Positions 99 to 64,000 of a DNA stretch of 64,000 bases are shown piece after piece. Both the position numbers and the translations under genes were made by a program. A model generated the notes under the pieces. It worked only from the letters and a program-made list of their open reading frames with translations, searched no databases and had not been told where the DNA came from. Numbering within the stretch: the stretch's first letter is position 1; the number at the start of each line of letters is the position of its first letter. Source of the stretch: Escherichia coli (GTDB lineage Bacteria > Pseudomonadota > Gammaproteobacteria > Enterobacterales > Enterobacteriaceae); NCBI RefSeq assembly GCF_051903065.1, contig NZ_CP178438.1; one strand, 5' to 3'.

Positions 99-122
99 GT
101 TCGAGTCCGGCCTTCGGCACCA
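99..122 (+). repeat. 24-bp copy of the 3' end of tRNA-Leu (leuX), likely island attachment-site direct repeat
   Basis: Sequence GTTCGAGTCCGGCCTTCGGCACCA matches the T-arm/acceptor 3' end of leuX as I recall it; the upstream bases do not continue into a tRNA body, so this is a partial copy, not a gene. Confidence 0.6.
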
Positions 123-346: not shown

Positions 347-3300
347 TTATATCTGCCCGCCTACACCTTTAAACTTCTCAATAAACGCGACGATCTTCTG
401 GAAAACCGTCTGTTTTTTCGTCTTATATTGCGGATTTAACGGACTGAGTTTTGGCAATGTCTCGTTTAATTCCGTGCCATTTTCGGTTGCGTATTCGCGT
501 TTTAAAGACGTGCGAATATAGCGTTTCGCCGCCTCTTCATTGAGATTTTCTTCTTTGATCAATGCTGCTGCTTCACGTTGCTGTTCGCGTTGAGCAAAGG
601 TAAAAAACGCGTCAATGATGCTGGCTTTATCCGGCAAATCATCCAGGTTCGTTTGCTGAATAAAATCGACCACCAATCCTTCTTTGGCACGGTTCCCAAG
701 GCTTGAACGAATTAAGCGTTTGACCTCTTCGGTCATTTCGCCCTTACCTTTGTTTTGTCTGTTGTGTTCGAAAATCAGTCCAAGGATATAATCCAGGTTT
801 ATTTCCTGAGACTTCAGCAAATCGACCTCAAAAACCACGTCATCCCAGTCGGTGGTTGATTTTTCTTTTTTGTCAGCTTCTTTCTCACGGCGCTGCCAGT
901 CACGAATATCGTTATAGGCTGAACGGTAATCCTGAATCTTGCGATCAGCAGGGAGACGAATCGTTTGTAATTCAGCGAACTTTTCATCATCCACATAATG
1001 TTCTGCTTTGAATTTTTCTACCGCAACAGGATCGCTAAGATCGATTTGTTGCAGGGCTTTCAGCATGGCAAATTCATCATAGTTTTGCAGGATGTTCTCG
1101 GCACGCAGGTATTCACCAAACAGTTTTACGAAGTCTTTCTTCTCTTTTTCACTTTCAATATTGGCAGGGTCAGGGAACCGTTGTTCCAGTTCTGAAACTA
1201 CTGCCATAAAGCCGCGTTTAGCTTCACCAGTGGCAGCATCAGTAAAGCCTTCCATATACTCTGCATAACTCTTTTCTAACACCACATTTTTGGTATTTTT
1301 ATCACCAAACAGCGTTATGGCATCAATGGTTGAGCGTTCCAGATCCCGGAAAGTGACGATGTTACCGAAGGTTTTAGTGGCGTTATAAATGCGGTTGGTG
1401 CGGGAAAATGCCTGCATCAGGCCGTGAAAACGCAAGTTTTTATCGACGAATAGCGTGTTCAATGTTGGAGCATCGAAGCCGGTTAAAAACATCCCCACGA
1501 CAATTAACAGATCGATATCTTGATTTTTAACCCGTTGGGCTAAATCACGATAGTAGTTCTGAAAACCGTTACTGTCGGTGCTGAAGTTAGTTTTAAAATA
1601 GCTGTTATACTCACGAATTGCAGCGTCAAGAAACTCTTTAGCACTGCTGTCCATTGCGCTGGTATCAAAAGTTTCATCGGAAATTTCACCAATGGCATTT
1701 TGCTCTTCATTGGCGGCAAAGGAGAAGATTGTCGCAACACGCAGCGGTTTATAAGTAGCCGATTTATTAGCTGCTTCCTCTTGTAACCGTTTAAACGTAG
1801 CGTAATAGGCTTTCGCGGCATCCACGCTACTCACTGCCAGCATGGCATTAAAGCCTTTGGAACTTGGGAAAGTACGGTGGGTCTTCTGGCGGAAGTTATT
1901 CAGAATATATTGCGTAATTTCCTGTATACGCATGGGATGAAGAAACGCCTGCTGATTTTCAGCCGCACTCAGTTTTTTCTCGTCGGTTTCTGTCTCTAAA
2001 GACTTAAACTGTGGCCGCACATCGTTGTAGTCCACCTTGAATTTGAGCACTTTTTCATCACGAATCGCATCGGTAATCACATATGAATGCAATTCACGAC
2101 CAAATACGCTGGCGGTCGTTTCTGAGCCTAAAGCGTTTTCCGGGAAAATAGGGGTACCGGTAAAACCAAACTGATAATAGCGTTTGAATTTCTTCTTCAG
2201 ATTTTTCTGCGCTTCTCCAAACTGGCTGCGGTGACATTCATCAAATATAAACACCACTTGCTGATTGTATACAGGCAGGTCGCTTTCTGCTTTCATCAGG
2301 TTATTAAGTTTCTGAATAGTGGTGACGATAATTTTGTTATCGTCCTTATCCAGATTTCGTTTAAGACCTGCTGTATTTTCCGAGCCGTTAACACTATCTG
2401 GCGAAAAACGCTGATATTCCTTCATGGTCTGGTAATCGAGGTCTTTCCTGTCGACCACAAAGAAGACTTTATCAATAAAGTCCAGTTCTGTTGCCAGACG
2501 TGCGGCTTTAAAGCTGGTCAGGGTTTTACCAGAACCGGTTGTGTGCCAGATAAAGCCACCGCTTTCGGGGGTAGACCAGTTTTTCGCTTTATAGGAGCTG
2601 TTGATTTTCCATAAGATACGCTCAGTGGCGGCAATCTGGTACGGTCGCATCACTAGTAGCGTTTGGCTAATATCGAACACGCTGTAGTTCACTAAGACAT
2701 TAAGCAGAGTATGTTTCTGGAAAAAGGTAGCGGTAAAGTCTTTGAGGTCTTTAATCAGCGTGTTGTCTGATTTCGCCCAATTCATGGTGAAATCAAAACT
2801 GTTTTTATCGCGCTTTGTGGTGTTGGCAAAATAACGGGTATCGGTGCCGTTAGAAATGACAAACAGTTGCAGATACTTAAACAGGGAATTTTCGCTGTTA
2901 AAACTCTCTTTACTGTAACGATGTATTTGGTTGAAAGCCTCACGAATCGCCACGCCGCGCTTTTTCAGTTCGATTTGTACCAGTGGTAAGCCATTAACCA
3001 GGATCGTGACGTCATAACGGTTAGCATGAGAACCCGCCTGTTCAAACTGCTGGATAATCTGCACCTTATTGCGCATGAGATTCTTTTTATCTATCAGATA
3101 GATATTTTCAAGACGCCCGTCATCAAAAATAAAGTCGCAGATATAGTCGATATGAATTTTACGGGTTTTATCCAGGATGCCATCGCTGGGGTTGTCCAGA
3201 TACTGCTCCGTGAAACGCCGCCACTCGCTGTCATTAAACACCACACCATTGAGGTTCTGAAGCTGTTCCCGAACATTGGACAGCATCGCCGACTGTGATT

Positions 3301-3463
3301 TTACCGAAATAAATTCATAGCCCTGATTCCGCAGGTCCTGAATCAGTTCCCGTTCCAGGTCCGATTCGCTCTGGTAGCTGTCGCCTGTTTGCTCAGCTTT
3401 GATGTACTTATCAAGGACGATAAAGTTATTGGATTCAGCAATGGTGTGTGTTTGATGAGTCAT
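347..3463 (-). CDS. hsdR: Type I restriction enzyme R subunit (HsdR), type IC / EcoR124I-like, 1038 aa
   Basis: ORF-track protein starts [14 protein letters not shown] and has the same length (1038 aa) as EcoR124I HsdR as I recall it; DEAD-box helicase motifs (TGSGKT, DECH) present. Confidence 0.9.
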
Positions 3464-3521: not shown

Positions 3522-3584
3522 GCGTAAAAAATAGTCTATATACAGACCGGGTGTTAAGGTGGCCCGGTCGGTAGCAATGGTCAA

Positions 3585-4865
3585 TTAGTTACTGATAGTT
3601 TCAGGTTTGGGAAAACTGAACAGTAAATCACGATAGTACTCGTATTGTTTCTGGCGCAACTCGATTTCACGCGGGAGGCCTTCGGTGATGGAGTTTGTCA
3701 GAGTGTCGAATTTATCGAGTATTGCGACGATACGAGCTTGTTCCTTAAGTGATTTTTCGTGATCTTTAGGATATGGAACCGGAATCATAATTTTTGAAAA
3801 ACCATTAATGAGTAGTGTATTAACTTTTGTTCTGGCTACATACTTTGCTTTTTCAGAAATAAACGAATCGGTTTGCATGTAATAGGAAATAAATTTTGGA
3901 TTCAAAGAATGTCGAAAAGCATAACAGTGATCATGAATAGCGATATCGTCATCCCCAAGCCATGCCACTGCTTTACCAACGTCTTCTACAGTCTCCCCCA
4001 CGTCAGTTATCACGACATCTCCATGTTTGGCATAGCGTAATGACGCTGCCATATCAGCTCTAACCTGTGATAACGAATGAGTTGTGTAAACACCATATCG
4101 TGTATATATCTCACCATAATGGATTACACTGATACCACCATCTTCTACATAATCTGCTTTAGTAAAACGTTTTCCACGAATAAACTCACCAATTTCCCCC
4201 AAAGTCTTCCACTCAACCTCACCCTCTTTAAAACTCAACAACTGGTCGCGATAGTAGTTGTACTGTTTTTTACGCATGGTAAGCTCTGCTGTAAGCTCTG
4301 CTGTAAGCTCAGTAAATTTATCCAGAATCCGAACGATTTCAGACTGGATGGCAAGGGATTTTTCCGGATTGCCCGGGCAGGGGATGGGGATGAGTAGTTT
4401 TGACATCAATGCATTTGAGCTTAGATTCGGCTGTGCTCCGCCCCCTGCAAGGATATAAATAGTCTCTGTATTTAACAATAAAAAATGGTATAAATAATTA
4501 TTGTTTAGAATATTTTCTTTGGGTATAAATTTCCCAACACGTTGGTTAAGATAACATTTTATTCCTTTTTTATAAATTCCCACTTTTCCTGTAGTGGCAC
4601 CTGACATTGCAATCAATATATTTCCCATAGATACCTCAAAGGAGGATAAATCTTCCTTGTAATCATTTAGTGAAAAGTATTTCACCTCATCTAAGTCAAC
4701 ATTAAACCCATCTATATTTGTGATTCTAACTATCGGTAACCCAGTTTCTTTAAATAAGCTGCTTTTAAATGCAAATCCATTTTTAAAATCACAAACATCC
4801 TTCAGGGTTTTCCACTCAACCTCAACCCCATCCAGCAATTTTTCCAGATAACTCAACTCGCTCAT
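3585..4865 (-). CDS. hsdS: Type I R-M specificity subunit (HsdS), type IC, 426 aa, with central TAEL repeat
   Basis: Conserved type IC central and C-terminal regions ([49 protein letters not shown]); start ATG overlaps the hsdM stop (ATGA), indicating translational coupling. Confidence 0.9.
4279..4311 (-). repeat. 12-bp tandem repeat in hsdS encoding (TAEL)2 plus a partial copy; spacer-length determinant of type IC HsdS
   Basis: Plus strand GTAAGCTCTGCT x2 then GTAAGCTCA; the minus strand reads ACT GAG CTT ACA GCA GAG CTT ACA GCA GAG CTT, i.e. [11 protein letters not shown]. Confidence 0.85.
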
Positions 4866-6416
4866 TTCTGCACCCCGCAGCCTTCAATTTCAGCCACAAT
4901 CGCATCAATATCTTTGCGCAACTGGTCGATTTTGCTGACCGTGGTTTTCAGCTCAGCATTCAGCTCACCGATATCGATAATTTCGCGAGTATCTTTCGCT
5001 TCAACATAGCTGCTCACCGACAGGTTATAGTCATTCGCTACAACGGCTTCAAACGCGACAGATTTCGCCAGATGAGCAACATCTTCCTTGCTGGCAAATA
5101 CCTGCATAATCTGTTCGATATGGGCATCGGTCAGGATATTGTTGTTGGTCTCTTTTTTGAACAGTTCGCTGGCGTCAATAAACTGAACTTTGGTATCGGT
5201 TTTATGTTTAGACAGCACCAGAATATTGACGGCAATAGTGGTGCCAAAGAACAGGTTCGGTGCCAGTGAAATCACGGTTTCGACATAGTTATTATCGACC
5301 AGATACTGACGGATTTTCTGCTCCGCGCCGCCACGGTAAAAAATACCCGGGAAGCAAACAATCGCAGCGCGACCTTTGGCCGAAAGATAGTTCAGCGCAT
5401 GTAGTACAAAGGCGAAGTCAGCTTTGGATTTGGGGGCCAGGACGCCAGCCGGGGCAAAACGTTCATCGTTAATCAGCGTCGGGTCATCGCTGCCAATCCA
5501 TTTCACCGAATACGGCGGGTTAGAAACGATGGCATCAAACGGTTTTTCATCTCTGAAGTGCGGCTCAGTCAGTGTATTGCCCAACTTGATATCAAACTTG
5601 TCGTAGTTGATGTTGTGCAAAAACATGTTCATACGCGCCAGGTTATAGGTCGTATGGTTGATCTCCTGACCAAAAAAGCCTTCTTCGATGATATGGTCAT
5701 CAAACTGCTTTTTCGCCTGCAACAACAGCGAACCGGAACCTGCGGCCGGGTCGTAGATTTTGTTAACGTGGGTCTGCCCGTGCATAGCCAGTTGTGCAAT
5801 CAGCTTAGAGACGTGCTGCGGTGTAAAGAACTCGCCGCCTGACTTACCAGCATTCGCGGCATAGTTAGAAATCAGGAACTCATAGGCATCGCCGAACAGG
5901 TCAATCTGATGTTCGTTAAAGTCGCCAAGCTTTAACCCTTCAACCCCTTTCAGAACCGCAGCCAGGCGGGCATTTTTATCCTTAACGGTGTTACCCAGGC
6001 GGTTACTGGTGGTATCGAAATCAGCAAACAAACCTTTGATGTCAGCTTCTGAAGGGTAACCGTAAGCAGAACTTTCGATAGCAACGAAGATGCTGTTTAA
6101 ATCTGCATTCAGTCTGTCATTGGTATTTGCTTTCGCAGCTACGTTGCAGAAAAGCTGACTTGGGTAGATGAAGTAGCCTTTGGTTTTGATGGCATCGTCT
6201 TTAATGTCATCAGTTATTACGCTGTCATCCAGTTTCGCATAACAGATACTGTCATCACCGGCTTCAATATAGCTGGAAAAATTTTCGCTGATAAAACGGT
6301 AGAAAAGCGCGCCCAGAACGTATTGCTTAAAGTCCCATCCATCGACCGAACCTCTGACATCGTTAGCAATTTGCCAGATCTGGCGATGAAGCTCCGCGCT
6401 GCTGAAGACTGGTCAT
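4862..6416 (-). pseudogene. hsdM: Type IC R-M methyltransferase subunit (HsdM) with an N-terminal frameshift (apparent 2-bp deletion in a CGCGCG run at about codon 8)
   Basis: ATG at 6416 with an AAGGA ribosome-binding site reads [17 protein letters not shown] then stop. The frame encoding the conserved body ([16 protein letters not shown]...) has an in-frame TGA at 6413-6415 and no ATG/GTG/TTG start until the TTG at 6031, which is why the ORF track shows only 389 aa. Confidence 0.7.
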
Positions 6417-6722
6417 TTTTTATCCTTTGAATGTGTTTTTAACGTCGGCTTTTGCCGGGATTTTACCGGAAGTTGTTTGGTTTTTCAGATTTGTATGACG
6501 GTGAGGAGGGGATTCAGTACCAGATTGTTAGTGCATCTTACTCAGCATTCACCGCTTGAGTCAGGAGGCTACTTTATATGCCCATCGCCCATCCGTAGGT
6601 GATCAGATAATTTATTGCGAGTCACCTTCCCGATTTTCAATCTCATTATTTACCCAATCTTTCACCAGTGGATAATTCGTCTGCTACTAACGGCGAGTGT
6701 ATTTTTTTACGGATGAAAGATT

Positions 6723-7556
6723 ATGCAAACAGAAGCTGAAGTCTTAACCGATCATAACGAACTAATTTGCTCGACCAGTATTGAGCGTATCGTCACAGGA
6801 CGTGATAGTGCACTGAACCAGATAGCGGCGTTAATCCAAAAGCTTGATGATATCTCCAGCCTGACATCCAGTATTGGCGGTGATGTGGCTGGAACCTGGG
6901 CAATGCGTAATGGATATGCCTTTGATTGCTGGCTGATGCAGCCAACCGACAAAGCGATGCCGGTGATCACCCGAAATATCGATCGCAGTATCTGGCGCGA
7001 TCTCATGCTGAAGTCCGGTATGTTGACTCTGATGGATGCCGAAGCTCGCAGTCAGTGGGCAAAGAATCTGGAGGAGGGCGATCTCCCGGCGATTAGCGAA
7101 GCCAACATCCTGAGTACCTTTGAACAACTTCACCACAATAAGCAGGATGTTTTCGAACGTGGGATTATCAATGTATTTAAGGGATTGAGCTGGGATTACA
7201 AAACCAATAATCCCTGTTATTTCGGTAAGAAGATTATCGTTAACAATCTGGTGAAGCATGACCGATGGGGCTACAGCCTGCACTGGGGCTGGCGGCGAGA
7301 TCAGCTTGCCGATCTGGAACGGATGTTCTATCTGCTGGATGGGAAGGTCATTCCCGATAACCGGCATGATGTTGCGATTCGGTTTATGGACTTCGTTAGT
7401 GCTCACCCGCATGAGCAGGTATTTAATGACGATTTATTTGTCATCCGCTATTACCAGAAAGGCAGTGGGCATATCACATTCAAGCGACTGGATCTGGTGG
7501 ATAAGATGAATGACATTGTGGCGAAGCACTATCCGTCAGCGTTATCAGCAAAATGA
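6723..7556 (+). CDS. Hypothetical protein, 277 aa, no catalytic motif recognised; divergently oriented from the hsd operon, upstream of the McrBC-like pair
   Basis: Clean ORF with ATG start and an AT-rich upstream region; I could not assign a family by eye. Confidence 0.6.
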   Translation: MQTEAEVLTDHNELICSTSIERIVTGRDSALNQIAALIQKLDDISSLTSSIGGDVAGTWAMRNGYAFDCWLMQPTDKAMPVITRNIDRSIWRDLMLKSGMLTLMDAEARSQWAKNLEEGDLPAISEANILSTFEQLHHNKQDVFERGIINVFKGLSWDYKTNNPCYFGKKIIVNNLVKHDRWGYSLHWGWRRDQLADLERMFYLLDGKVIPDNRHDVAIRFMDFVSAHPHEQVFNDDLFVIRYYQKGSGHITFKRLDLVDKMNDIVAKHYPSALSAK

Positions 7557-7914
7557 ATGTCGTATGTTTGCTGTCAATAATGTCGTTACTGGAACCCTCT
7601 GAATTTCGGCATATCCATTTACTGGAAACGATGTTTACCTAAAAACAGTTGATTCCCTATGCAACTAGAAACCTCACACAGGTTGAAAAACGAGTAGCGA
7701 TTTTACGTATGAAAGAATGCTATAGCCTTCTCTGAGAGCCATCAACATCATGCGTTTTGCAGTTAAGTCATCAGATAAATGTGGTGGCTCCAGGGCAGAA
7801 GGTAATTTCAGGATGAAAGTTATTTTTTTTATCACAAAATTTAACATTTTTGAGATTAATCCGATAAGATAAGGCTATCCCAATTTCCCTCCCCCCTACA
7901 TATTGGATTAAGAG

Positions 7915-9969
7915 ATGGTTCAGGATTCATCAGCATTAGCCCCCTTCTTTCGTGCTCAAATTGAAAAAAATAATCAATACAATTCAGTTTGGGGCAAACA
8001 CTACCGCCAGCTTGTAGAACAGATTCAGGCCGAAAAACCAAACTTTTCTGAAGCCACGATTCGGCAGGTATGGTATGAACGTGACAATGGTGTCTCCAGC
8101 CTGATGCAAGGAGGGATGTCATTGGTTGAATTTGAAAATGCACAAAAAGACCTTCTAACGCTCACCCGTCAGATAGCAGAAGAGTGTACACAAGAAAATT
8201 ATAATCGGGTCATTGAACGCCTTATCAAACTTAAAGCGGACGGAGTATTAAATAAGGTATATAGGGCTCTTTGTAATCGTGCTTTTGCAGCAATATACCC
8301 ATCAAAAATTAGCAGTGTCGTGAATGTTAATAATTTTTTTAGTTGCTACAATTATTGCAACAACCATTTCCAGCTAGGTCTTTCCGGAGAACGGGAGTGG
8401 CTGGCTCGCAATGTTGATCTTAAAGAAACGCTAAATCGTGCGCTGGGTGATGATATCGACCCTATTGAGCTGAATATGTCACTTTGGCATCTCTATGCGT
8501 ATGAAATTCAGGATAAAAATGCTATCGGTTTAGTTGGAAGCGAAAGTGCTTTACAAGAAAATGAGCAAGAAGATGATGTTATAAGTTCGCCATTGCCTAA
8601 AAACACAATTCTCTATGGCCCGCCAGGTACAGGTAAAACATATCGTACTATTGAGCTTGCTGTACAAATTTGTGATCCGATCGCTTACTCCCTGCAGGAG
8701 GGTAAGGATGAGAGTGAAAAACGTCGCGAGTTGAAAAAGATTTATGATCAGCTTATCAAAGAAAATCGAGTGCGTTTTATCACCTTTCATCAGAGCTTTG
8801 GTTATGAAGAGTTTATTGAAGGTTTAAGAGCTGAGACTACTGATGACGGTAATGTAAAATACGAAATAAAGGCAGGTATTTTTAAGCAGATATGCGAGGA
8901 TGCCGCCTTTGGTCATGCTGGTGCGCAGGAAATGTTAGATAGCGCACTTACTCGCCTACAAGAACGTTTATCTGAAGGTGAAAATATCACGCTGGAAACA
9001 CAACAGGGTAAGGCCTTCCAGCTGACGTATAAAAGTCAAACCAACTTTGGAATTTTCCCGTCACAATCGAAAAAAGAGGATTTAGGACAGGGTTACAATG
9101 CCTATTTGAAGGATATTCGGCAAGTTTATCAGGATCCACGAGCAAAAGTACATAATCCATCTTATGTACGCAGTATCCTTAACTATTTAATTAATCAACG
9201 TTATCTGCCTCTGAATACTCAGAGCGTAGCTTCAGAAAAAAAGGAAAACTATGTTCTCATTATTGATGAAATAAATCGGGGTAATATTTCAAAAATTTTC
9301 GGTGAACTAATTACCCTTATTGAGCCATCTAAACGGGCTGGTGAGCCAGAATCGCTTAGCGTATTGCTGCCATACTCTTCCACTCCATTTAGTGTGCCGA
9401 ATAACCTTTATTTAATTGGTACCATGAACACTGCTGATCATTCGCTTACTGCACTTGATACTGCACTACGTCGCAGATTTGATTTTGAAGCGATGCTGCC
9501 AGATATTACTGTTCTGAAAGATACTGTCATTAAAGGTATTGATCTGCCTCGTCTATTGCAGACGCTTAACGATCGCATCCAGGTTTTATACGATAGAGAA
9601 CATATGCTGGGGCATGCTTTTTTTATCCCTGTTGTGCAGGCAAAAGAAGACGAAGCTCTGGCATTTGAAAGATTCAAACGGATTATGCGAAATAAGATAC
9701 TACCATTGCTGGAAGAATATTTTTACAATGACTGGCAAAAAATTCGCATGGTACTGGCTGATAACCAAAAAGAGGAAGCACCAGATCTTCAATTTGTACG
9801 TGAGGTGAAATACCAGAAAAAGTATGCCGATCTCTTTGGTGATAACGGAACAGATGACTTGGGAACCAGTTTTCACCTGGCAGCAGAGGATGACAACGTT
9901 TGGGACAATCCAATCGCCTGGCAGCAAATTTATGCACCTCAAAAAGAAAAACGCAGGAGTGCGGAATGA
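7915..9969 (+). CDS. McrB-family AAA+ GTPase (type IV restriction-like), 684 aa, with a non-canonical N-terminal domain of about 230 aa
   Basis: Motifs ILYGPPGTGKTY, FHQSFGYEEFIEG, IIDEINRGNISKIFGEL and GTMNTADHSLTALDTALRRRF parallel the EcoKI McrB GTPase motifs; residues 1-230 do not resemble the EcoKI McrB N-terminal 5mC reader as I recall it. Confidence 0.8.
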   Translation: MVQDSSALAPFFRAQIEKNNQYNSVWGKHYRQLVEQIQAEKPNFSEATIRQVWYERDNGVSSLMQGGMSLVEFENAQKDLLTLTRQIAEECTQENYNRVIERLIKLKADGVLNKVYRALCNRAFAAIYPSKISSVVNVNNFFSCYNYCNNHFQLGLSGEREWLARNVDLKETLNRALGDDIDPIELNMSLWHLYAYEIQDKNAIGLVGSESALQENEQEDDVISSPLPKNTILYGPPGTGKTYRTIELAVQICDPIAYSLQEGKDESEKRRELKKIYDQLIKENRVRFITFHQSFGYEEFIEGLRAETTDDGNVKYEIKAGIFKQICEDAAFGHAGAQEMLDSALTRLQERLSEGENITLETQQGKAFQLTYKSQTNFGIFPSQSKKEDLGQGYNAYLKDIRQVYQDPRAKVHNPSYVRSILNYLINQRYLPLNTQSVASEKKENYVLIIDEINRGNISKIFGELITLIEPSKRAGEPESLSVLLPYSSTPFSVPNNLYLIGTMNTADHSLTALDTALRRRFDFEAMLPDITVLKDTVIKGIDLPRLLQTLNDRIQVLYDREHMLGHAFFIPVVQAKEDEALAFERFKRIMRNKILPLLEEYFYNDWQKIRMVLADNQKEEAPDLQFVREVKYQKKYADLFGDNGTDDLGTSFHLAAEDDNVWDNPIAWQQIYAPQKEKRRSAE

Positions 9970-11276
9970 AATCTTCCAGTCATTTCACTGTGTTCGAATA
10001 CGGGCATTTAGTGAGTGAGGAAGGTGATGCCCGTATAAATAATGCGGTAGTGCTACCTGCAGACCTATTTAAATGGCTTGAGCTGCGCTGTCTGAAAGAC
10101 GATGCTGATAATACTCATCGTTTGCTCACCCTTAGCAGCCGGAATGGAGTAAAAACGCTGCAGGTAAAAAACTATGCAGGAGTAATCTCACTGCCAGGGG
10201 GGCGATTTCTCGAAATCCTGCCTAAAACAGGTCAGGATAATGAGGATACTGTTCGTCAACAAATACTGATGATGTTACGTACGTTAAAATCATTTCGTCA
10301 TATTGCCTCCTCTGAATCTGGCGTCAAAATATCTAAAATGCCTCTGATGGACATCTTTATTCAACAATTTATAGAGAGCGTGCGTAAGATTGTGCAGAGA
10401 GGGTTAAAACGTGACTATTTACGTCAGGAAGATAATCTTCCATGGATAAAAGGAAGATTACGGATCTCTGCACAATTAAGCAAAAACTGTATTAGGCGGG
10501 ATCTTTTTCAGGTGGAGTATGACGAGTACAGCGTCAATCGTCTGGAAAACCGGATACTCAAAACTGCAATCAATAAGATTAGTCGCCAGACCAGTAATCC
10601 ACAATTATTACAGCAGATAACACAGCTGCAGTTTCACTTTGAAAATATCACGTCAGTTCATGATGCTTATATAGCTTTCGAGCAGTTACACTTTGATAGA
10701 CACATGCATCACTATGAGCAAGCATTAGCGTGGGCGAAGATGATTTTATTGGGCGATTCTCCACACTGTATGTATGGGGATGTTAATGCTTTTTCACTGC
10801 TTTTCCCGATGGAGGCTGTTTTTGAATCTTTTGTGACGACATGGATGCGTTATCGTTATTATGATAAATGGCGAGTGGACGCACAGGTAAGTTCAAAAAA
10901 TCTGATTAGTTATAACGGTAAAGCTTTATTTAAGCTGCGGCCTGATATTTGTTTACGGCCTCGTAAAAGTACTACTGGTTCAGTTATTACCTGTGATATT
11001 AAATGGAAGATAGTAAATGGCAGAAAGGACAGTCTTGAACAATCTCAAGCCGATCTCTACCAAATGCTTGCCTATGGATTGAATTACCAGGAGGGGGAAG
11101 GTGATATGATTTTGATATACCCCTATCATAACGGATTTAATCAGCCATCTCCTCATCCTTATGAATTTAGCCATCAGAAGGAAAATAGGTTACGTTTATG
11201 GGTTGTACCTTTCTTTATTGGCGAGAGTTTACAGACATCAGAGTTGCATTTTCCTAGTGGGGCTGAATTTATTTAG
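9966..11276 (+). CDS. McrC-like PD-(D/E)xK nuclease partner, about 436 aa, translationally coupled to the McrB-like gene
   Basis: ATG overlaps the McrB-like stop (ATGA at 9966-9969); C-terminal PDICLRP...ITCDIKWK fits a PD..D-x-K nuclease motif. The ORF-track start at 9900 lies inside the upstream gene and is probably too far 5'. Confidence 0.75.
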   Translation: MKSSSHFTVFEYGHLVSEEGDARINNAVVLPADLFKWLELRCLKDDADNTHRLLTLSSRNGVKTLQVKNYAGVISLPGGRFLEILPKTGQDNEDTVRQQILMMLRTLKSFRHIASSESGVKISKMPLMDIFIQQFIESVRKIVQRGLKRDYLRQEDNLPWIKGRLRISAQLSKNCIRRDLFQVEYDEYSVNRLENRILKTAINKISRQTSNPQLLQQITQLQFHFENITSVHDAYIAFEQLHFDRHMHHYEQALAWAKMILLGDSPHCMYGDVNAFSLLFPMEAVFESFVTTWMRYRYYDKWRVDAQVSSKNLISYNGKALFKLRPDICLRPRKSTTGSVITCDIKWKIVNGRKDSLEQSQADLYQMLAYGLNYQEGEGDMILIYPYHNGFNQPSPHPYEFSHQKENRLRLWVVPFFIGESLQTSELHFPSGAEFI

Positions 11277-11338
11277 TATTTGTAGGCTATCTCTTTATAC
11301 AATTTATTTGTCTATTTGTATGCACAAGATAGCCTACC

Positions 11339-12211
11339 TCACCCCCTAAAAACCTCTTTCCGATGCCACTCCACAAACCCCTCAAAAGGGTAATTTTTAC
11401 GCACCTGTGGCAACGCAATAGTTTTCCCGTCAAAATCCCAGAATAATCTCTCAACGATCCCTCCGCCGTTTACCGCATCCGAGACCAGTATCCGCATATT
11501 TTCATCCAGGCCAATCGATCCTTTATCAAAGGCTTTATGGTGTATTGCGCAAAGTGCCAGACCATTGGGGATTTCACAAGGGCCGCCGTGCTGTTTCCAT
11601 TTTATATGCGCCGCTTCCAGCGCGACGGTGGTGTCGTCGTGGCGCATATTAAAGCCACATATCGCGCACTGGTATTTATAAGCGCGTAATACATTTTTGC
11701 GAAATAACGGGTCGCGCTGTTTACGGATTTGCTGGAGATCAAAACCCAGCTCGTCAGCAATTTCTTCCTGAATACTCTCGGTGAAGTGCGCTTCGAGTAT
11801 CTGTTGCGCCAGAGTATTGATGAGTTTTTTATTGCCGGTTACCAGGGCGTAGTGCTGTTCATCGAAACCGCCTGCAACGTGGTATTCGTTCAGTTCCTTC
11901 ACTGGCGGTTGTCGGCTGCTCCCTGCTGTTGAGCAACGCTCGGCATTGTGTAATTGCCAGAATCCGTCGCCTTGTAATCGCCAGAACGGCATATCAGGTC
12001 GGTACTGTGAACGCTGTGGCCCAAAACGTTCCAGTAAACTGTGCAGAGGTTCGTAGATTTCCGAGCCATAATCGAAAAGGCGCGGATGTCCATGCAGGTA
12101 TCCCGCTAATACGTATAGCAATAACAATGGCTTATGCGGCGCGCGCTGTTCACCCTTATGCCAGATTTTTATATTGGCAATTGCCTGCTGTAGCGATTTA
12201 CTGGAAGCCAT
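11339..12211 (-). CDS. HNH-family nuclease (C-terminal CAICG...HIKW...CAIHH motif) with an uncharacterised N-terminal domain; candidate modification-dependent restriction enzyme
   Basis: Cys/His HNH motifs in the C-terminal third; start chosen at ATG 12211 (AGGGA ribosome-binding site, protein begins MASSKSL); the ORF track extends to a TTG at 12268. Confidence 0.65.
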   Translation of the reverse strand: MASSKSLQQAIANIKIWHKGEQRAPHKPLLLLYVLAGYLHGHPRLFDYGSEIYEPLHSLLERFGPQRSQYRPDMPFWRLQGDGFWQLHNAERCSTAGSSRQPPVKELNEYHVAGGFDEQHYALVTGNKKLINTLAQQILEAHFTESIQEEIADELGFDLQQIRKQRDPLFRKNVLRAYKYQCAICGFNMRHDDTTVALEAAHIKWKQHGGPCEIPNGLALCAIHHKAFDKGSIGLDENMRILVSDAVNGGGIVERLFWDFDGKTIALPQVRKNYPFEGFVEWHRKEVFRG

Positions 12212-12347
12212 TGATATCCCTGGCAGTGAAATAATTGCGATCATGCTCGCAAATTTTCTGCTGTTCAAGCCTGCAAGTGAAGATATATTACTTTGATCTC
12301 ATTTGTTTTTTTGCTGCTTGTTCTGAGAACGTATAAGGACATTCTCT

Positions 12348-12998
12348 ATGAATAAACTCCCCGATCATCTTCCGCGGCGGTATATTATCGAAGCTATTCA
12401 TTTATGGGATGCGGGAGAAACTCATCAGTTCCAGCCTGCACGGTTGTATGAGATTGAATATCATGGCCGACGTTACCCCTCGAAGGCGATTGCTGGCATC
12501 GCAGCGACATTGATGACGGGGACGCAATTTACCCCTGCGGATTTCACCGGCGGAATAAAATCTAAATGCGTCAAGCTACTTATAGATCAGGGATTTCATA
12601 TTCATCAGGATAAAGCCGCTGCGGCTCCCATAGCCGATGTTCTGTTCCCGGATGAGTTGCCGTCGCAGGGGACCTACGTTGAAGGTGCGGCGATAAAGGT
12701 GACGGTAAACAGCTATGAACGCGATAAAAACGCTCGCGAGAAAGCAGTCGAATATCACGGATGCCAGTGCAACGTATGCGGCGTTGATCTGGTGAAGATC
12801 TATGGCGATATCGCTGAGGGCTTTATCCATATGCATCACCTGGTGCCGCTTTCAGCCATTAAAGAGGATTACCTGCTGGATCCAGTTAATGATTTACTTC
12901 CTGTGTGCCCTAATTGCCATGCGATGTTGCACCGACGCAAACCACCGTTTACGCCGGAGGAGTTAAAAGCGTTGATGGATGCGAATAAATCAAATTAA
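12348..12998 (+). CDS. HNH nuclease, 216 aa (C-terminal CQCNVCG...HMHHLVP...CPNCH, McrA-like HNH) with a distinct N-terminal domain
   Basis: HNH zinc-finger-type motif resembling the E. coli McrA C-terminus as recalled; transcribed divergently from the neighbouring HNH gene. Confidence 0.7.
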   Translation: MNKLPDHLPRRYIIEAIHLWDAGETHQFQPARLYEIEYHGRRYPSKAIAGIAATLMTGTQFTPADFTGGIKSKCVKLLIDQGFHIHQDKAAAAPIADVLFPDELPSQGTYVEGAAIKVTVNSYERDKNAREKAVEYHGCQCNVCGVDLVKIYGDIAEGFIHMHHLVPLSAIKEDYLLDPVNDLLPVCPNCHAMLHRRKPPFTPEELKALMDANKSN

Positions 12999-38737: not shown

Positions 38738-41700
38738 TTAAAGTGATTTACGGCAGGCGGTCAGTTGGGGGCTGGAATCAGCGTCGCTTCCGGTCATACC
38801 GGTTAGCATCTGCACATAGTAGTGCCGACTGTAATCATCAGATTCACTTGTCCAGTAAGCTCCCGGTGTAAATTGCGAATTACTGGAAAACGCTCCAACG
38901 TTCCCCCATTCACCATACAGCGATCCCTGCGTGCGTTTGTTTTCGCCAGACGTCAAATGTGCGATGCCAGGGAGATTATATCCATCATTTTTAGCATGAC
39001 AGAGCGCATTGGCAGCTAGCCAGATATTGGTATGATTTCCATTATTCACCCACCAGCCTTTCAGCTTAATTAAGGTCTGGTAGGTTGTACCTCCTTGTCG
39101 GGGAACAGCGCTTATTGTTACTGACGTTTGATCGCCGATATTTGCGAAAGAAACCTTACCTGAAGCATCGACCGACACCCAACTCTGTGAACTTGAAAAC
39201 ATATAATCATCAACGGTTTTACCCGCTTCAAAGTTATCATTGTTGAGTGTGTAATACGCTCCTGCAAAACCTTCGCTCGGGAATTTAGCCGTGGAGAAGG
39301 TATGGTTGTTTGCAGTGACATGACCGGACATTTCTTTTATCGAGCGGATGAGATTCAGCGATACGCTTAAGTTTGCCTGATGAACCCCGTTCAGCATGGG
39401 AATGAGAGTCGCTGTTCCCTCTTTTCCGCCAGTGACAGTCACGGTGTACTCGCCATAATTTCTTTGGCTGTAATCAATATCGCTCAACTTGAGAAAGTTC
39501 ACGAAGGGACCTGACTGGACAAATTCCAGATGATCAGACGTCACTATCGGGTTACCGTACTTGTCTTGCAATGTTAGCGTAAGTTTCGCGCTATGCTGGT
39601 AGTCAGCCATCAGAGTGCTAACGTCGGATTTCAAAATTGACTTACTTTCATCCGCCGTGCCGGCAATCAAGGTAATAGCTGCGGATTGGTTGGCTGTACC
39701 AGGAACTTGCACATTGACTGTTAAGGTTTCTGCCAATGTACTGGTTATTGTCGCCGTGACTTGCCCGGATTGATCGGTACGCGTAGTTGGAATATTAACT
39801 ACCGGGCGACCTTTGGTGTCTAAGGTATAACTAACATCGACACCTTCAACCGGGAATCCGTAATCATCTTCTACTCGTGAAGTGATGGTGCTGCTATCGA
39901 TGCCGTCGGCGGTGATGGTGTCAGGAGAAGCCACGACGCTCACAACATGTGCCGTTTTAGCATCTGCCTTAACCGCAACCGTTACCTGGCTCTGAACGGG
40001 AACATCTTTGCTCATTATGGCCGTAACGGTATAGACATTCACTTTGTCACTGGTCAGCGTCACTTTGGCCTGACCTGACTGGTCAGTAAGGACTTCCCCT
40101 GTATTGCTTAGCGTTGCACCTTCAGGCGTTACGCTAAAGGTGATAATTTGCCCTGGCATCAATTCACCCCGCGCATTTCTCGCCGTTGCGGTCAGCGTAA
40201 TACCCTCACTATTATGGACCGTGGTTTCTGGTTTCGATGATGTTAACTCGAGTTTGCCATTTGCCACATTCACGTCAACCTTACTACTACTGTTATTGTC
40301 CAGCGTTGCCGTCACCTGATAAACCCCAGGTTGGGTGCTGAGAAGGTTAACGTACGCATAACCGTTATTATCGGTGTAAGCCGTATCGCCTATCGTAATG
40401 TTAGCTGTTGGCTGCGCACTTAATCTGACGCGTTGACCCGCGATTACATTGTTAAACGCGTCCGGGACGAGTATCCGTAGCGTGATGTTTTCGCCCACCG
40501 TTATCGTTTTTTCGGCTCCGGTTATACTTATTACCTTCGCCGAACTTTCATCCGGCAGCACTGATAAACTAAACGTTTTATTATCGGAGGCTTGCGCTTT
40601 CCGGCTCACCACGACGTTATGTTGTCCGGCAATATTGCTGGTCATTGTTACCGTCGCCTGACCCAGCGTATTGGTGGTGACTTCTGTTCCGCTTAGAGTG
40701 ACATCGTTACTCTGGAAAGTGACCAACTGGTCTTTAAGCGGATTTTGGTAAGCGTCCAGGATCGTTGCCGTCAGGGTACTCCCCGTACTGTTACCCGCAA
40801 CAATGGAATTTAATGAGGCAGTCAGCGGCTGGAGCTGCGCACTGTTTGTATCCCCAATAAAAGTGACTTGCTGATAAGCAACGGTATTATTTCTGGTCAG
40901 CGTCGCCGTAACTGTAAACTCACCCGCTTTTGTGCCTCGCAATGTGACCACGGCATCACCGTTTGCATCGGTGCGGGCGGTTTCACTACTTAGCGTGAAG
41001 TTCCCGGTCATGGAGGCTGGCAAGGTAAATTTCACATCCTCATCCGGCAACGGGTGTCCATAAACATCTTTCACACTGGCAGTCAGGGTAACGGTATTTG
41101 TATTGTTAGCGATCGCACTGCCCGACCCAGCATTCAAGGTCATTACCGATTGTTCCCTGTTTGGGACCACGGTGATCGTGACCGACTGGTGAATATTTTT
41201 ATTCACCTCAAGCGAGGCATCGACGGAATAGCTACCAGCTTTTGAACTGGTCAGGTGCACCCGCACAATACCGGACTGGTCTGTTGTGGCGGTCGTGTTG
41301 TCCAGTTGCGAGCCACCAGGTGCCACAAAATTCACTTTCATATCTTTTAACGGGTTGTTATGAAAGTCTGTGACGATGGCGGTCAGAGTACTGCCCTGGC
41401 TGTTGCCAGCAATAATGGTATCTGGATCGGCAACCAGTTGTTTGAATTTTGGCGTACTCGAATCGCTAACGAATTTCGCAATTATCCGTTGTGAGAAACC
41501 ATTTGGCAGCGTGGCGCTAATCGTATTTTCTTCCGCAACCTGACTTACCATGTTGATTGTGGCAACACCGTATCCATCCGTATTTTGCTGCGGCGGTTCG
41601 ACAAATTCCGCGCTTCCTTTTTCATTCTTAAAGGTGACCTGATGATTTATCAGGGGATTATCACTCTCATCAGTGACGTTGATAGTGAGGGTATTAAATG

Positions 41701-59063: not shown

Positions 59064-62000
59064 TTAATTTAAAGCACTCATATGGTGTTCTTTAAAATTC
59101 TCTGCCTGTGCCAGCACACCCATATAAACATCATCATTCGCTACTGGCGGGAACTTATGCTTGTGTAGAAGCAGAATAAGTTCAACTTTCAGTTTCGCTT
59201 TAATATCATCGCGTTTACTCCAGTCAGGATATTTCGATGTGTTGTCAACCACGCTTTTCATCTCTTTTGCCAGTGACAGCATTTTTTCATCGTCATAGGT
59301 GAACTGATATTTATCGCGCATATGAGCAAGAATGTCGAAAAACGCTTTTTCTTCAATATCAATACCTAAATCGGCCCAGGTGCCCATTTCGGTTTTAATA
59401 TCATAGATAATATCGGTCATTTCCTGACTGAATGTATCGAATTCTTCACCGTTGAGTACATCATCTTCTCGCCGCTCATTATAACGATCTATAATCGCCT
59501 GGAAGCGGCGGGTGAAGTTAATCCCTTGCAACTGGTTCACTTTCTTGAAGTCGCTGATCGCTTTTTCCAGTAATTTTTGTAATAACTGGATCTTCGTTGC
59601 CGGAAGTTTGATCTTGTTAATTCGCGCCAGATAATCTTCGTCAAAAATATCGATGGATTCCGCTTTTTTATCGCCAAGAAAATAAATTTCTTCTACGCCA
59701 TCAGCTTTTAGCGCTTCTGCAATCATTTCACGAACGCGTGCATTCATCTGGGTGACATCCGGTGCGTCACCTTTCGTCAGTTTGAAAACAATTGAACGAA
59801 CAGCAAGATAATAGTGAATATAGTCACGTTCTGTCTGTGATAATGCTTCGCTGCCGCAGCAGACGTCGTAGGCGGCTTTCATGCGTTTAACCAGTCCCAT
59901 AAACCGACGTTCAACTTTCTGGGTACGCAGAACGAATTCCGCCGCGCGGTTGAGGCAGGATAATTGCGCTTGTGGCTCACCACTAAAATAATCCCGACTG
60001 TCAAATTCGTAAAAGACTTGCCCCAACAAATCGAGATGGTTTTTAACTTCTATTACCGATTGCTGAATATCTTCAAAGTTGGTGGCATCAATGCGGGAAT
60101 ACATTGCCAGTGCCTGGTTCATCTGACTTTTAATGCCGATGTAGTCCACCACTAACCCTTTGCTTTTGCCTTCCAGTTTACGGTTAACGCGAGAAATAGT
60201 CTGGATAAGGTTATGTTTTTGTAAGGGCTTATCAATATAGATGGTATCCAGTTCCGGGACGTCGAAACCGGTCAGCCACATGTCAACAACAATGGCAATT
60301 TTGAAATTCGATTTAGCGTTTTTGAACTGCTTATCCAGCTCTTTGCGATATTCTTTTGTGCCCAGTAAATCATAAAGCGCCTCGTCGTCATCTTTACCGC
60401 GCGTCATGACCATCTTCACCATTTCTGAAGGCGGTAACTCTTTCTGCTCCTGCTCCGTCAGGACGACGCCATCAGGTGCTTGCTTCACTTCAAACCAGGC
60501 AGGGCGAATAGCTTTAAGCTGGCGGTAGAAATCCCAGGCAATTTCACGGCTGGCGCAAACAAACATGGCTTTGCCTTTTACGGTGGAACCTTCGGCTACG
60601 CGTTTTTCATAATGTTTAGCAAAATCTTCCGCGAGGGCTTTTAACCGGTCTTCATCACCCAGAACCGCATTCATGGTTGCGGTGGCTTTTTTGCTTTCGT
60701 CGATTTGCCACTCATTGGTGCCTGCGTTTGCGCACTCTTCGTAATACTTTTCGACTTCTTCCAGTTTGCTGGAGTCCAGGATCACTTTAGCCGCACGGCC
60801 TTCGTACACGATGCGCACAGTGATTTCATCCTGAACGGATTCGGTCATGGTGTAACTGTCGATCACCTCACCGAAGACATCGAGCGTCGCGTCAATCGGT
60901 GTGCCGGTAAAGCCAACATAGGTGGCGTTTGGCAGTGAATCGTGCAGGTATTTCGCAAAGCCATAAGTTTTGCGCACTTTTCCGCTTTCTTTATCGACGA
61001 TGACTTTCTGGTCGAGGTTAACCTGGCTGCGATGTGCTTCGTCCGAGATGCAAATGATATTGCTGCGTTCAGAAAGGAGTTCGGTGTCTTCGGTGAATTT
61101 ATGGATCGTTGTCAGGAATACACCGCCACTATTGCGTCCCGCCAGTTGATTACGCAAATCTTCACGGCTGGTAACAGGAACGATGGTGTCGTCGCCAATG
61201 TAATTTTTGGCGTTGCACATTTGCGCAGAAAGCTGATCGTCCAGATCGGTGCGGTCGGTGATCAAAACAATGGTCGGGCTGGCAAACTCCACGCTCTTCA
61301 TCAAAAGACGCGTTAAAAATTGCATGGTGTAACTTTTGCCACAGCCCGTTGCGCCAAAGTAGGTGCCGCCTTTACCGCTACCGAAAGGTTTACGCGCTTG
61401 CTTGATGCTGTAATAGAGTTTGCGGGCGGCATAGTACTGCGGATATCGGCAGCAAATTTTTACTTCGTGCTTGGCTTTATCCGGGAAGCAGATAAAGTTT
61501 TTAATCACATCCAGCAGACGTACCGGATGAAACAACCCCTGAATCATCGAGTGCAATGATGGAATTCCGTCCTGTTCACGGTTTTCATTGCCGGTGACTT
61601 TGCGCCATGAGTAAAAGTATTCATAGGGCGCAAACAGGTTGCCCATCCGGTTATTTACGCCATCGCTAATAATGCAGAGCGCGTTGTAGATAAACAGTTG
61701 CGGAATATCCCGGCGATAGCGTTTACAGAGCTGCTTCCAGGCATCGCCAATACTGGCTTCCTGCTCGCGCACCGCACTTTTAAATTCAAAGACGACCAGT
61801 GGCAGACCGTTGATATAGAGAATGCCGTCAGGAATACGAGTCTGATTATCTTTGCCGGAGATTTTAAGCTGGTTAACAATCTTAATCCGGTTAAGCGGCG
61901 GATTAATATAGAAAGGCGGGAGTTCCGCCGCCTGTTGCAACGGGACATCTTCGGCGTCAAATATCTGGCGCAGTGCGGCAGGTAGATGCCGGGTGTCGAG

Positions 62001-62339
62001 CAATTCAATATAGAGATCTTTTTGTTGCCGATCGTCGCGTTTGAACAGAAAACCATTTGCCAGCCAGCGACAAAATGTTTTGTTGCTTTCATAAAGGTCG
62101 GAGGCCGGAAGCGTGGTGAACTGTTTGATCAGTCGCTGAATCTCTTCTTCAGTAATGCCATCAGGCTGGTAGCGTGCCGCTAAATAATGACGGAGATCGT
62201 CTTCGATAATGACCTGATCGAGACTCGAACGTGGGACATTATCGCCGATCAGGTGTTGATATCCCTGATCCTGTAGCAGTTCAATGATCGCTTGTTCTAA
62301 TTTTGCTTCACTGAAAGAGAGACTCATATCGCGCTCCAA
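59064..62339 (-). CDS. hsdR: Type I restriction enzyme R subunit (HsdR), non-EcoKI allele, about 1090 aa
   Basis: Superfamily 2 helicase motifs (GATGCGKS, DEAH-like) and the overall type I HsdR architecture; N-terminus differs from K-12 EcoKI HsdR; start may instead be the ATG 12 nt downstream. Confidence 0.85.
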   Translation of the reverse strand: MERDMSLSFSEAKLEQAIIELLQDQGYQHLIGDNVPRSSLDQVIIEDDLRHYLAARYQPDGITEEEIQRLIKQFTTLPASDLYESNKTFCRWLANGFLFKRDDRQQKDLYIELLDTRHLPAALRQIFDAEDVPLQQAAELPPFYINPPLNRIKIVNQLKISGKDNQTRIPDGILYINGLPLVVFEFKSAVREQEASIGDAWKQLCKRYRRDIPQLFIYNALCIISDGVNNRMGNLFAPYEYFYSWRKVTGNENREQDGIPSLHSMIQGLFHPVRLLDVIKNFICFPDKAKHEVKICCRYPQYYAARKLYYSIKQARKPFGSGKGGTYFGATGCGKSYTMQFLTRLLMKSVEFASPTIVLITDRTDLDDQLSAQMCNAKNYIGDDTIVPVTSREDLRNQLAGRNSGGVFLTTIHKFTEDTELLSERSNIICISDEAHRSQVNLDQKVIVDKESGKVRKTYGFAKYLHDSLPNATYVGFTGTPIDATLDVFGEVIDSYTMTESVQDEITVRIVYEGRAAKVILDSSKLEEVEKYYEECANAGTNEWQIDESKKATATMNAVLGDEDRLKALAEDFAKHYEKRVAEGSTVKGKAMFVCASREIAWDFYRQLKAIRPAWFEVKQAPDGVVLTEQEQKELPPSEMVKMVMTRGKDDDEALYDLLGTKEYRKELDKQFKNAKSNFKIAIVVDMWLTGFDVPELDTIYIDKPLQKHNLIQTISRVNRKLEGKSKGLVVDYIGIKSQMNQALAMYSRIDATNFEDIQQSVIEVKNHLDLLGQVFYEFDSRDYFSGEPQAQLSCLNRAAEFVLRTQKVERRFMGLVKRMKAAYDVCCGSEALSQTERDYIHYYLAVRSIVFKLTKGDAPDVTQMNARVREMIAEALKADGVEEIYFLGDKKAESIDIFDEDYLARINKIKLPATKIQLLQKLLEKAISDFKKVNQLQGINFTRRFQAIIDRYNERREDDVLNGEEFDTFSQEMTDIIYDIKTEMGTWADLGIDIEEKAFFDILAHMRDKYQFTYDDEKMLSLAKEMKSVVDNTSKYPDWSKRDDIKAKLKVELILLLHKHKFPPVANDDVYMGVLAQAENFKEHHMSALN

Positions 62340-62421
62340 CCCTGGCTAATTTCTGGTAAGCATTCCCGTATCAGTAGAAAACCTTACCAGAAAGCCCCTG
62401 ATTTTACAGGGGCAAAATGCG

Positions 62422-63771
62422 TTATGCAGCTTCTGTATCGGTAGTGAGATCCGGAAGATCTTCCAGGGATAGCTCACCGGAGATGAGTTTCGGGAGCAGG
62501 GTGTCGCGGAGTTTTAATAATATTCTATTATTTTCATTATTTCTTGATATTGCTAATGAAATATTTGAACATATAGAATCAAATTTTCGTTCAACTTCAC
62601 CATTTTCAGAGTGAGATATAACGTGGCTTAGTATTTTACTGGGTGATGTGTGTTTCACAGTTGTGCCAGTAACACTACCTAAAACAGTATTTCTATAGTT
62701 TTGAGATATTAATACTTGGTATATAAATTCTTTTACGGAAGAGGGATGTTTTCCGAGAATGACTCGACCTAAACGTTGATTGTGGAGAAATTGAGTGTCT
62801 TCACGAGAAGGGACTCTAGCGGCATAACCTAAAGAATCACATTCTTTACTTAGATCTGTCATGGATACAAATATGTCATCTACTCCAAAAATATAATCCT
62901 TTGGGATTTCACCTTTATAATATTTGAGTTTGTCAAATTTAAATCCACCTCCGATTCTCACATTTCCTGGCGTCAACAATATCTGATTTGTTTTTGTTTC
63001 TGAAAAATATTCTCCTTTAAAAGCAAAGCCATGCTTAATATCAATTAATTTGCTTAAACCAGAATATATCCATTTAGCAGGTAAGTATCCTACTTCTGTT
63101 TCTTCAAATTCACTTGGGAAAAGCGAGCGGATTTCCGCCGGAAGTGGTTTAAAATCTGCACTATTACGTACTTTTTGACGCAATTCGGTGCGAGTTTGCA
63201 GGGCTTCCGGGATTGGATTTCCTGCATCCAGAGCGTTATCAATCACCGGATCAAAATCCACAAACCAGGATTTGAACAGGGTTTGGGACATTTGTTCCAA
63301 GGTTTGGTTCATGGATGAAAGTGTTGTGATTTTGTCATCAAAAGCTTTGAGACTCTTGACTATTAAATCTTGAACATTTAGCGAAGGAGCAGATATTTCT
63401 ACATTCGCTAGATCATTGATGGTTATTTGGCTTTGAGCAGAACCGCTATCAAGATATCGTAAATTACTCTGTAGAAACAGATAATAAAAATATTCTTTTC
63501 TTACTTTTGTTTCATCCAAATTTATTTTAATGGACAAATTTGTTAAATAACAATCTCTAGTCGTTATTTTAACATCGCCAGTTCCACCAACACCTCGGGC
63601 AACAACAATTAACTCACCTGCCGAAGTATTTTTTTCAGGGTAGCTTTCTGTGTATTTATATCCTGAAAAAATGACATAGTCACCTGTACCAACAAACTCC
63701 TTTTTAGGCATTTTTCCGTATGAAAATTCAGCTATATCACCTAAGCGATATATACACCACTTATTCCCCAT
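62422..63771 (-). CDS. hsdS: Type I R-M specificity subunit (HsdS), about 449 aa
   Basis: Two AT-rich target-recognition domains separated by conserved helices; ATG (MGNKW...) overlaps the upstream hsdM stop by 11 nt. Confidence 0.85.
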   Translation of the reverse strand: MGNKWCIYRLGDIAEFSYGKMPKKEFVGTGDYVIFSGYKYTESYPEKNTSAGELIVVARGVGGTGDVKITTRDCYLTNLSIKINLDETKVRKEYFYYLFLQSNLRYLDSGSAQSQITINDLANVEISAPSLNVQDLIVKSLKAFDDKITTLSSMNQTLEQMSQTLFKSWFVDFDPVIDNALDAGNPIPEALQTRTELRQKVRNSADFKPLPAEIRSLFPSEFEETEVGYLPAKWIYSGLSKLIDIKHGFAFKGEYFSETKTNQILLTPGNVRIGGGFKFDKLKYYKGEIPKDYIFGVDDIFVSMTDLSKECDSLGYAARVPSREDTQFLHNQRLGRVILGKHPSSVKEFIYQVLISQNYRNTVLGSVTGTTVKHTSPSKILSHVISHSENGEVERKFDSICSNISLAISRNNENNRILLKLRDTLLPKLISGELSLEDLPDLTTDTEAA

Positions 63772-64000
63772 AACCCAGCGCCTCCAAATTCTTGCGAATC
63801 GCACGATCCAGTTCTTCCGCCTGCTTCATCTGCTCAAACAACGTCTTCGACAATTCGCGCATTTTCGTCTCAAATGCCACGCCGTCTTCTTCCTGCTCGG
63901 CTGCACCCACATAGCGGCCCGGTGTCAGTACGTAGTCGTTATCTTTAATATCTTGCAGGGTTGCAACTTTGCAGAAGCCTGCCTGGTCTTCATATTTTTC
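63761..64000 (-). CDS. hsdM: Type I R-M methyltransferase (HsdM), 3' end only; the gene runs off the window edge
   Basis: The minus-strand frame reads ...GFCKVATLQDIKDNDYVLTPGRYVGAAEQEEDGVAFETKMRELSKTLFEQMKQAEELDRAIRKNLEALGYGE then stop, a typical HsdM C-terminus. Confidence 0.8.
   Translation of the reverse strand, partial: EKYEDQAGFCKVATLQDIKDNDYVLTPGRYVGAAEQEEDGVAFETKMRELSKTLFEQMKQAEELDRAIRKNLEALGYGE

Follow-up and report, generated by a model that had tools for sequence, protein, structure and literature searches.

What has become of a type I restriction–modification system whose methylase gene can no longer be read through from its own start codon? The question is raised by the hsd locus in a 64,000-nucleotide stretch of Escherichia coli DNA (NCBI RefSeq assembly GCF_051903065.1, contig NZ_CP178438.1), referred to here as the window. 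An initial annotation, made from the letters of the window, had placed a frameshift at about codon 8 of hsdM. We consider it highly probable that this lesion is an inherited, recent 2-bp knock-out of hsdM, one of many, and that the system is presumably inactive; loss of the protein and of its activity is what we infer from the lesion.

The system had been assigned to type IC, and the protein comparisons bear this out. The hsdR gene (347–3463, minus strand) is intact and full-length, and all 1038 residues of its product align with EcoR124 HsdR (2w00_A) at 2253 bits and near-identity; the protein carries the EcoR124_C Pfam domain. Restoring two bases in hsdM had been predicted to give an EcoR124-like protein. 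It does so, as residues 1–518 of the repaired HsdM align with residues 3–520 of EcoR124II HsdM (PDB 7bst_D) at 1147 bits with few substitutions, and the protein scores 650 bits with the NCBIfam hsdM equivalog model and so passes its cut-off of 243. Between these genes lies an intact hsdS (3585–4865, minus strand; 426 aa) with conserved regions of the EcoR124 type and target-recognition domains of its own: its conserved regions (N-terminal, central, and C-terminal) match EcoR124II HsdS exactly, while both target-recognition domains differ. The central conserved region contains the 12-bp repeat GAGCTTACAGCA (4279–4310, minus strand), which encodes (TAEL)2 in the window; this repeat, placed in the central helix, is diagnostic of the family. 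The order hsdM–hsdS–hsdR was confirmed, and the gap upstream of hsdR measures 121 bp and holds a promoter-like match at 3557–3528, which is a consensus match only. This layout, with hsdR under its own promoter, is typical of type IC systems. The type IC family was first defined by genetic complementation and antibody cross-reaction among its members (PMC3874165). Because HsdM and HsdR are near-identical to those of EcoR124, and the conserved regions and TAEL repeat of HsdS are common to both, the locus is a chromosomal type IC (EcoR124-family) system by every sequence criterion tested.

The closest points of reference are EcoR124I and EcoR124II, the prototype type IC systems of plasmid R124. 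They share with the window the gene order, the gap before hsdR, HsdM (once repaired) and HsdR proteins that are collinear over their full length and near-identical, the HsdS conserved regions, and the 12-bp TAEL repeat. The window system differs from them in being chromosomal, beside leuX within a defence-gene cluster, in its HsdS target-recognition domains, and in its frameshifted hsdM. A further difference concerns the site of the lesion itself, as the run of three GC units, (GC)3, is specific to chromosomal alleles; the R124-like plasmid alleles read CAACAACGTGCAGAG and have no GC run there.

In related genomes the system lies beside tRNA-Leu (leuX), ahr, and yjgR, and its other flank consists of a DUF4942 gene, an McrBC-like pair, a phosphorothioate-DNA-binding endonuclease, and an HNH endonuclease, followed by nan and fim genes. 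The first 24 kb of the window are 99.7–99.9% identical to E. coli 23CRST027 and 23CRST031. Adjoining hsdM in the window is the defence-gene cluster (6723–12998), which encodes DUF4942 (277 aa), McrB-family (684 aa), and McrC-family (458 aa) proteins and a phosphorothioated-DNA-binding restriction endonuclease (NF045808, 439 bits); its open reading frame at 12348–12998 occupies the position where related genomes annotate the HNH endonuclease. IS903B splits McrB in 23CRST027; the McrB of the window is intact. On the leuX side, window positions 99–122 correspond to the 3′ end of tRNA-Leu without the remainder of the gene and are preceded by AT-rich sequence. ARAGORN reports no tRNA in the window, and 23CRST027 has a whole tRNA-Leu at the position of this fragment. 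The window-type leuX junction (positions 1–135) is present in approximately 1600 complete E. coli genomes and thus appears to mark the right-hand end of an island commonly integrated at leuX. Farther along, the minus strand encodes an inverse-autotransporter adhesin (38738–43978; 1746 aa, with an IatC/intimin-like N-terminus) and a 758-aa pentapeptide-repeat protein (47613–49889), both unrelated to the hsdM lesion.

We examined the reading frames at the 5′ end of hsdM. The native start is the ATG at 6416–6414 on the minus strand, with AAGGA 6 nt 5′ of it; the 5′ region (6417–6488, minus strand) holds this ribosome-binding site and a sigma-70-like match at 6488–6460, again a consensus match only. 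The frame that begins at this ATG runs for 17 codons to a TAA at 6365–6363. This start remnant (6363–6416, minus strand) corresponds to native HsdM sequence in its first 7 codons only. The type I methylase body is encoded in the +1 frame, which has a TGA at 6415–6413 and is open from 6412 to the stop at 4864–4862. Codons 9–518 of the intact protein lie there undamaged (4862–6394, minus strand) and lack a usable start. The first ATG, GTG, or TTG in this frame is the TTG at 6031, preceded only by near-cognate ATC, ATT, or CTG codons, so that among the 510 remaining HsdM codons no in-frame ATG, GTG, or TTG occurs earlier than codon 130. What gene callers report is the longest open reading frame with a canonical start, which begins at TTG 6031 (4862–6031, minus strand; 389 aa). 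Its product matches PF02384 only and lacks HsdM_N; the intact 518-aa protein matches both PF12161 and PF02384.

Alignment with homologous loci locates the damage precisely. Exactly 2 bp are missing from the window hsdM, with intact alleles reading CAGCAGCGCGCGGAG and the window CAGCAGCGCGGAG; in the wider alignment of complete E. coli genomes the corresponding sequences are ATGACCAGTCTTCAGCAGCGCGCGGAGCTT and ATGACCAGTCTTCAGCAGCGCGGAGCTT. The shorter form is read in the window, L001 (23CRST027), and L002, and the longer one in the intact loci L003, L004, L006, and L016–L024. The loss shortens an alternating GC run at codon 8 (6395–6399, minus strand) from GCGCGCG to GCGCG, so that one unit of the (GC)3 run is gone. 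The initial annotation had described a start codon with a ribosome-binding site and a short frame, a methylase body in another frame without a start before TTG 6031, and a break near codon 8. The open reading frames, the codon scan, and the alignment agree with each part of this description, and all of its coordinates are correct.

The expected consequence follows from type I biochemistry. Type I enzymes act as an M2S methylase and an R2M2S nuclease; the S or M subunit alone does not bind DNA, and R docks via M (PMC3874165, PMC7383803). Among the three frames that a functional R2M2S enzyme requires, hsdS and hsdR are intact in the window and hsdM is frameshifted. Ribosomes initiating at the native ATG would stop after 17 codons, and loss of HsdM would leave no M2S core to bind DNA and dock HsdR. 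Because HsdM is needed for this core, neither methylation nor restriction by the system is expected, and the predicted phenotype is r−m−. The frameshift has thus very probably shut down the entire system. It probably also lowers hsdS translation, since the hsdS ATG overlaps the hsdM stop (TGA 4864–4862) as ATGA and would normally be coupled to translation of hsdM.

Among the alternatives, the one that survives best, although we regard it as improbable, is that the system is partly active through an N-terminally shortened HsdM, made by reinitiation at ATT 6370 or ATC 6379, by +1 slippage in the leader, or from TTG 6031. Two codons speak for the first of these routes: ATT 6370–6368, separated from the leader stop by 2 nt, and ATC 6379, which follows a GGAG at a distance of 12 nt. 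Reinitiation at either would give an HsdM without 12–15 residues, at a low level and with low probability. AUC and AUU are very poor initiators in E. coli, and the leader offers neither a canonical start nor a well-spaced Shine–Dalgarno sequence. Slippage fares no better, as inspection of the 17-codon leader revealed neither a slippery motif of the prfB kind (CUU UGA preceded by a Shine–Dalgarno sequence) nor a CUU-U or other re-pairing site before the UAA that could support a programmed +1 frameshift; the ancestral allele, being intact, has no need of one. Inspection of the leader for another canonical start or for a frameshift signal thus yielded none. The product from TTG 6031 would lack the whole HsdM_N domain.

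Partial activity might also be read from the absence of further damage in the clone, in which hsdS and hsdR are fully intact despite the hsdM lesion, with 0–1 SNPs across the clone, and the HsdM body has not decayed further. Intact hsdS and hsdR could mean that the system is still useful, or they could be equally expected after a very recent loss. The absence of further decay is uninformative here, because the clone differs by only 0–1 SNPs in 4 kb. Loss is evidently tolerated, because nonsense mutations and IS insertions have disrupted the same gene elsewhere. Activity might in principle be supplied in trans by a plasmid-borne type IC hsdM, and plasmids of this kind are common in E. coli (746 plasmid places). 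The window also contains a second, unrelated type I system (59064–63804, minus strand), with an HsdR-like protein of 1091 aa (TIGR00348, 468 bits) and an HsdS-like protein of 460 aa; its hsdM would fall past the end of the window. This system is from another family, so complementation of the type IC hsdM is not to be expected from it.

We compared the locus with other strains, as the initial annotation had proposed, and found the same deletion in 23CRST027, in 23CRST031, in further contigs of the same haplotype, and in the unrelated strain E21845/O/A. The survey covered 5426 complete E. coli genomes, in which 301 chromosomes carry this hsdM 5′ end. The 2-bp loss is present in three of these carriers (23CRST027, 23CRST031, and E21845/O/A), and the remaining 298 read (GC)3. 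In 23CRST027 (NZ_AP045789.1), hsdM and hsdR are the same as in the window, with 0 differences, and the hsdM pseudogene (AC6IZ1_RS00935) bears the PGAP note "frameshifted"; unlike the window, this strain carries the TAEL repeat three times in its hsdS, and copies of IS903B lie within mcrB and close to it. The 23CRST031 gene carries the same 2-bp deletion as the window. Beyond complete genomes, the exact 389-aa shortened reading frame occurs on 78 contigs of an assembly collection drawn from NCBI, ENA, and Logan. All nine fetched places with this reading frame carry the deletion, with 0–1 mismatches from the window over 2.6 kb of upstream sequence plus hsdM, or 13 in one case. By exact look-ups, the deletion was present in 16 of 16 window-haplotype contigs with a readable hsdM 5′ end, comprising nine found via the shortened reading frame, two via the HsdS with two TAEL copies, three via the HsdS with one copy, and the two complete genomes 23CRST027 and 23CRST031. 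We conclude that the 2-bp deletion is, on these comparisons, a real and inherited mutation of one E. coli clone.

The age of the mutation can be judged from intact relatives. The repaired protein is found naturally on 14 contigs, and over approximately 4.1 kb (the 2.6 kb upstream plus hsdM) the 2 bp are the sole difference between the window and four loci, L016 (GCA_053739595.1), L022, L023, and L024. Because these intact copies of the same haplotype show 0 mismatches over this length, the alignments indicate that the window deletion is recent and arose within one clone.

The allele of E21845/O/A (A7A11_RS23665) has a separate history. It carries the same 2-bp deletion on another hsdM haplotype, differing from the window at 39 positions, of which the one closest to the deletion is 18 bp away, and it is associated with another hsdS and other neighboring genes. 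With the 60 nt upstream included, it differs from the intact PM4-5 allele by the 2 bp only, and L043, a second sample of the E21845/O/A haplotype, has the deletion as well. We considered transfer of the deletion by recombination between the window clone and E21845/O/A; it is excluded by the identity of the E21845 allele to PM4-5 elsewhere and by the SNP 18 bp away. A search of the literature on strain E21845 returned nothing relevant. These alignments indicate that the same 2-bp loss arose independently in E21845/O/A. Replication slippage would be the most likely cause of the deletion, and recurrence of the same slip at the (GC)3 run fits slipped-strand mispairing.

Could the (GC)3 run instead be a low-rate contingency site, at which phase variation switches the restriction–modification system OFF and ON reversibly? 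Several observations point in this direction. The identical 2-bp loss has occurred at least twice independently, and ON and OFF alleles stand side by side in one otherwise identical haplotype. The simple sequence repeats (SSRs) of phase-variable hsdM genes are typically located in the 5′ region (PMC7383803), as this run is. In the known SSR-driven hsdM genes of Haemophilus influenzae (CGAGA) and Mannheimia haemolytica (ACAGC), a change in the length of the 5′ tract likewise puts the gene out of frame and switches the methylase OFF (PMC7383803). The comparison goes no further, because the tract considered here has three units only, neither expansions nor reversions were seen, and the OFF state is rare and clonal. 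Phase-variable hsd genes are called at five or more dinucleotide units (PMC7383803), whereas the run has three units in intact alleles and two in the window. Among close relatives, both states occur in one haplotype, and contraction is the only change observed. The OFF form at this site accounts for 3 of 301 complete genomes, a synthetic (GC)4 query matched none of 299 complete genomes, and no case of reversion of the deletion was found among the alleles compared. Plasmid-borne relatives (CAACAACGTGCAGAG at this position) lack the run altogether.

Irreversible hsdM knock-outs, moreover, are at least as common as the slip at the GC run. L032 (GCA_036604245.1), which has the window haplotype with an intact (GC)3 run and an hsdS with three TAEL copies, has lost 11 bp (GTTAAGGATAA, hsdM nt 433–443) and is frameshifted, a second and independent hsdM knock-out within one clone. 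In two other haplotypes (L033–L050), hsdM has been disabled by a 4-bp deletion (nt 193–196), an ATG-to-ATA change, 2-bp TA and CA insertions, nonsense mutations (Q6*, Q13*, and a stop at nt 370), and IS3 insertions; hsdS and hsdR are usually still intact in these loci beside the 5′ knock-outs of hsdM. A special hotspot or phase-variable tract was also considered and is not supported, since no (GC)4 was found and the other surveyed haplotypes mostly carry different knock-outs. Weighing these points, we judge a reversible switch at the GC run to be very unlikely. Because only three of 301 genomes lack the 2 bp, no (GC)4 allele is seen, and many unrelated knock-outs affect the same gene, the loss of hsdM is best described as recurrent gene decay and not programmed switching.

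The TAEL repeat of hsdS varies as well. In EcoR124I and EcoR124II, TAEL copy number sets the length of the recognition-site spacer, N6 or N7 (PMC3874165). Within the single haplotype of the window, among sister alleles that otherwise do not differ, we observed three states, with three, two, or one copies and HsdS proteins of 430, 426, and 422 aa. Three copies occur in L016 (GCA_053739595.1) with an intact hsdM and in 23CRST027 with a frameshifted one; two copies occur in the window, L009, L025, and L026; and one copy occurs in L007 (a 4.9-Mb contig), L008, L010–L012, and L027–L030, with GCA_949766195.1 among the one-copy alleles. No mention of a natural one-copy form was found in the review consulted. 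The fetched two- and one-copy examples have a broken hsdM wherever the hsdM 5′ end is present, and TAEL contraction may be drift after loss of function. A clean link between hsdM inactivation and TAEL contraction holds in the window haplotype, but it was not retained, as the samples are clonal and intact-hsdM alleles vary too: L017 and L020, both with intact hsdM, differ in TAEL copy number (381 and 385 aa). Even less credible than phase variation alone is a combined scheme in which the (GC)3 run acts as a weak reversible switch and the OFF state provides a safe interval for a TAEL or spacer change before hsdM is restored.

The least probable reading, that the genome truly has (GC)3 with an intact hsdM and that the lesion is an artefact of sequencing or assembly, draws on the location of the indel in a short dinucleotide run, but it can be dismissed given the same allele in two complete genomes and in every short- and long-read contig of the haplotype that was fetched, the products of many independent runs, and given the 298 of 301 complete genomes that read (GC)3, same projects included, which argues against a systematic miscall at the motif. 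Intact runs, seen as 603-bp matches, occur in 23CRST024 alongside 23CRST027 and in 442/2 and SA31-1 alongside E21845/O/A, and a platform-specific miscall is unlikely because these genomes belong to the same series. The initial annotation had left sequencing error and slippage both possible. The recurrence in many assemblies and the intact run in genomes of the same projects rule out the former, and a real deletion stands.

The lesion is already known, insofar as RefSeq flags the same frameshifted hsdM pseudogene in sister genomes. Pseudogenes of hsdM are commonplace, and the value of the finding lies mainly in annotation and strain biology; it involves no new mechanism. For the clone, the inherited hsdM knock-out very probably means one restriction barrier fewer and should leave it open to DNA that is restricted in an intact sister strain, and its methylome should lack the corresponding bipartite m6A motif. 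More broadly, the repeated and varied knock-outs of the chromosomal EcoR124-type hsdM across E. coli add a small, useful observation on how defence systems turn over.
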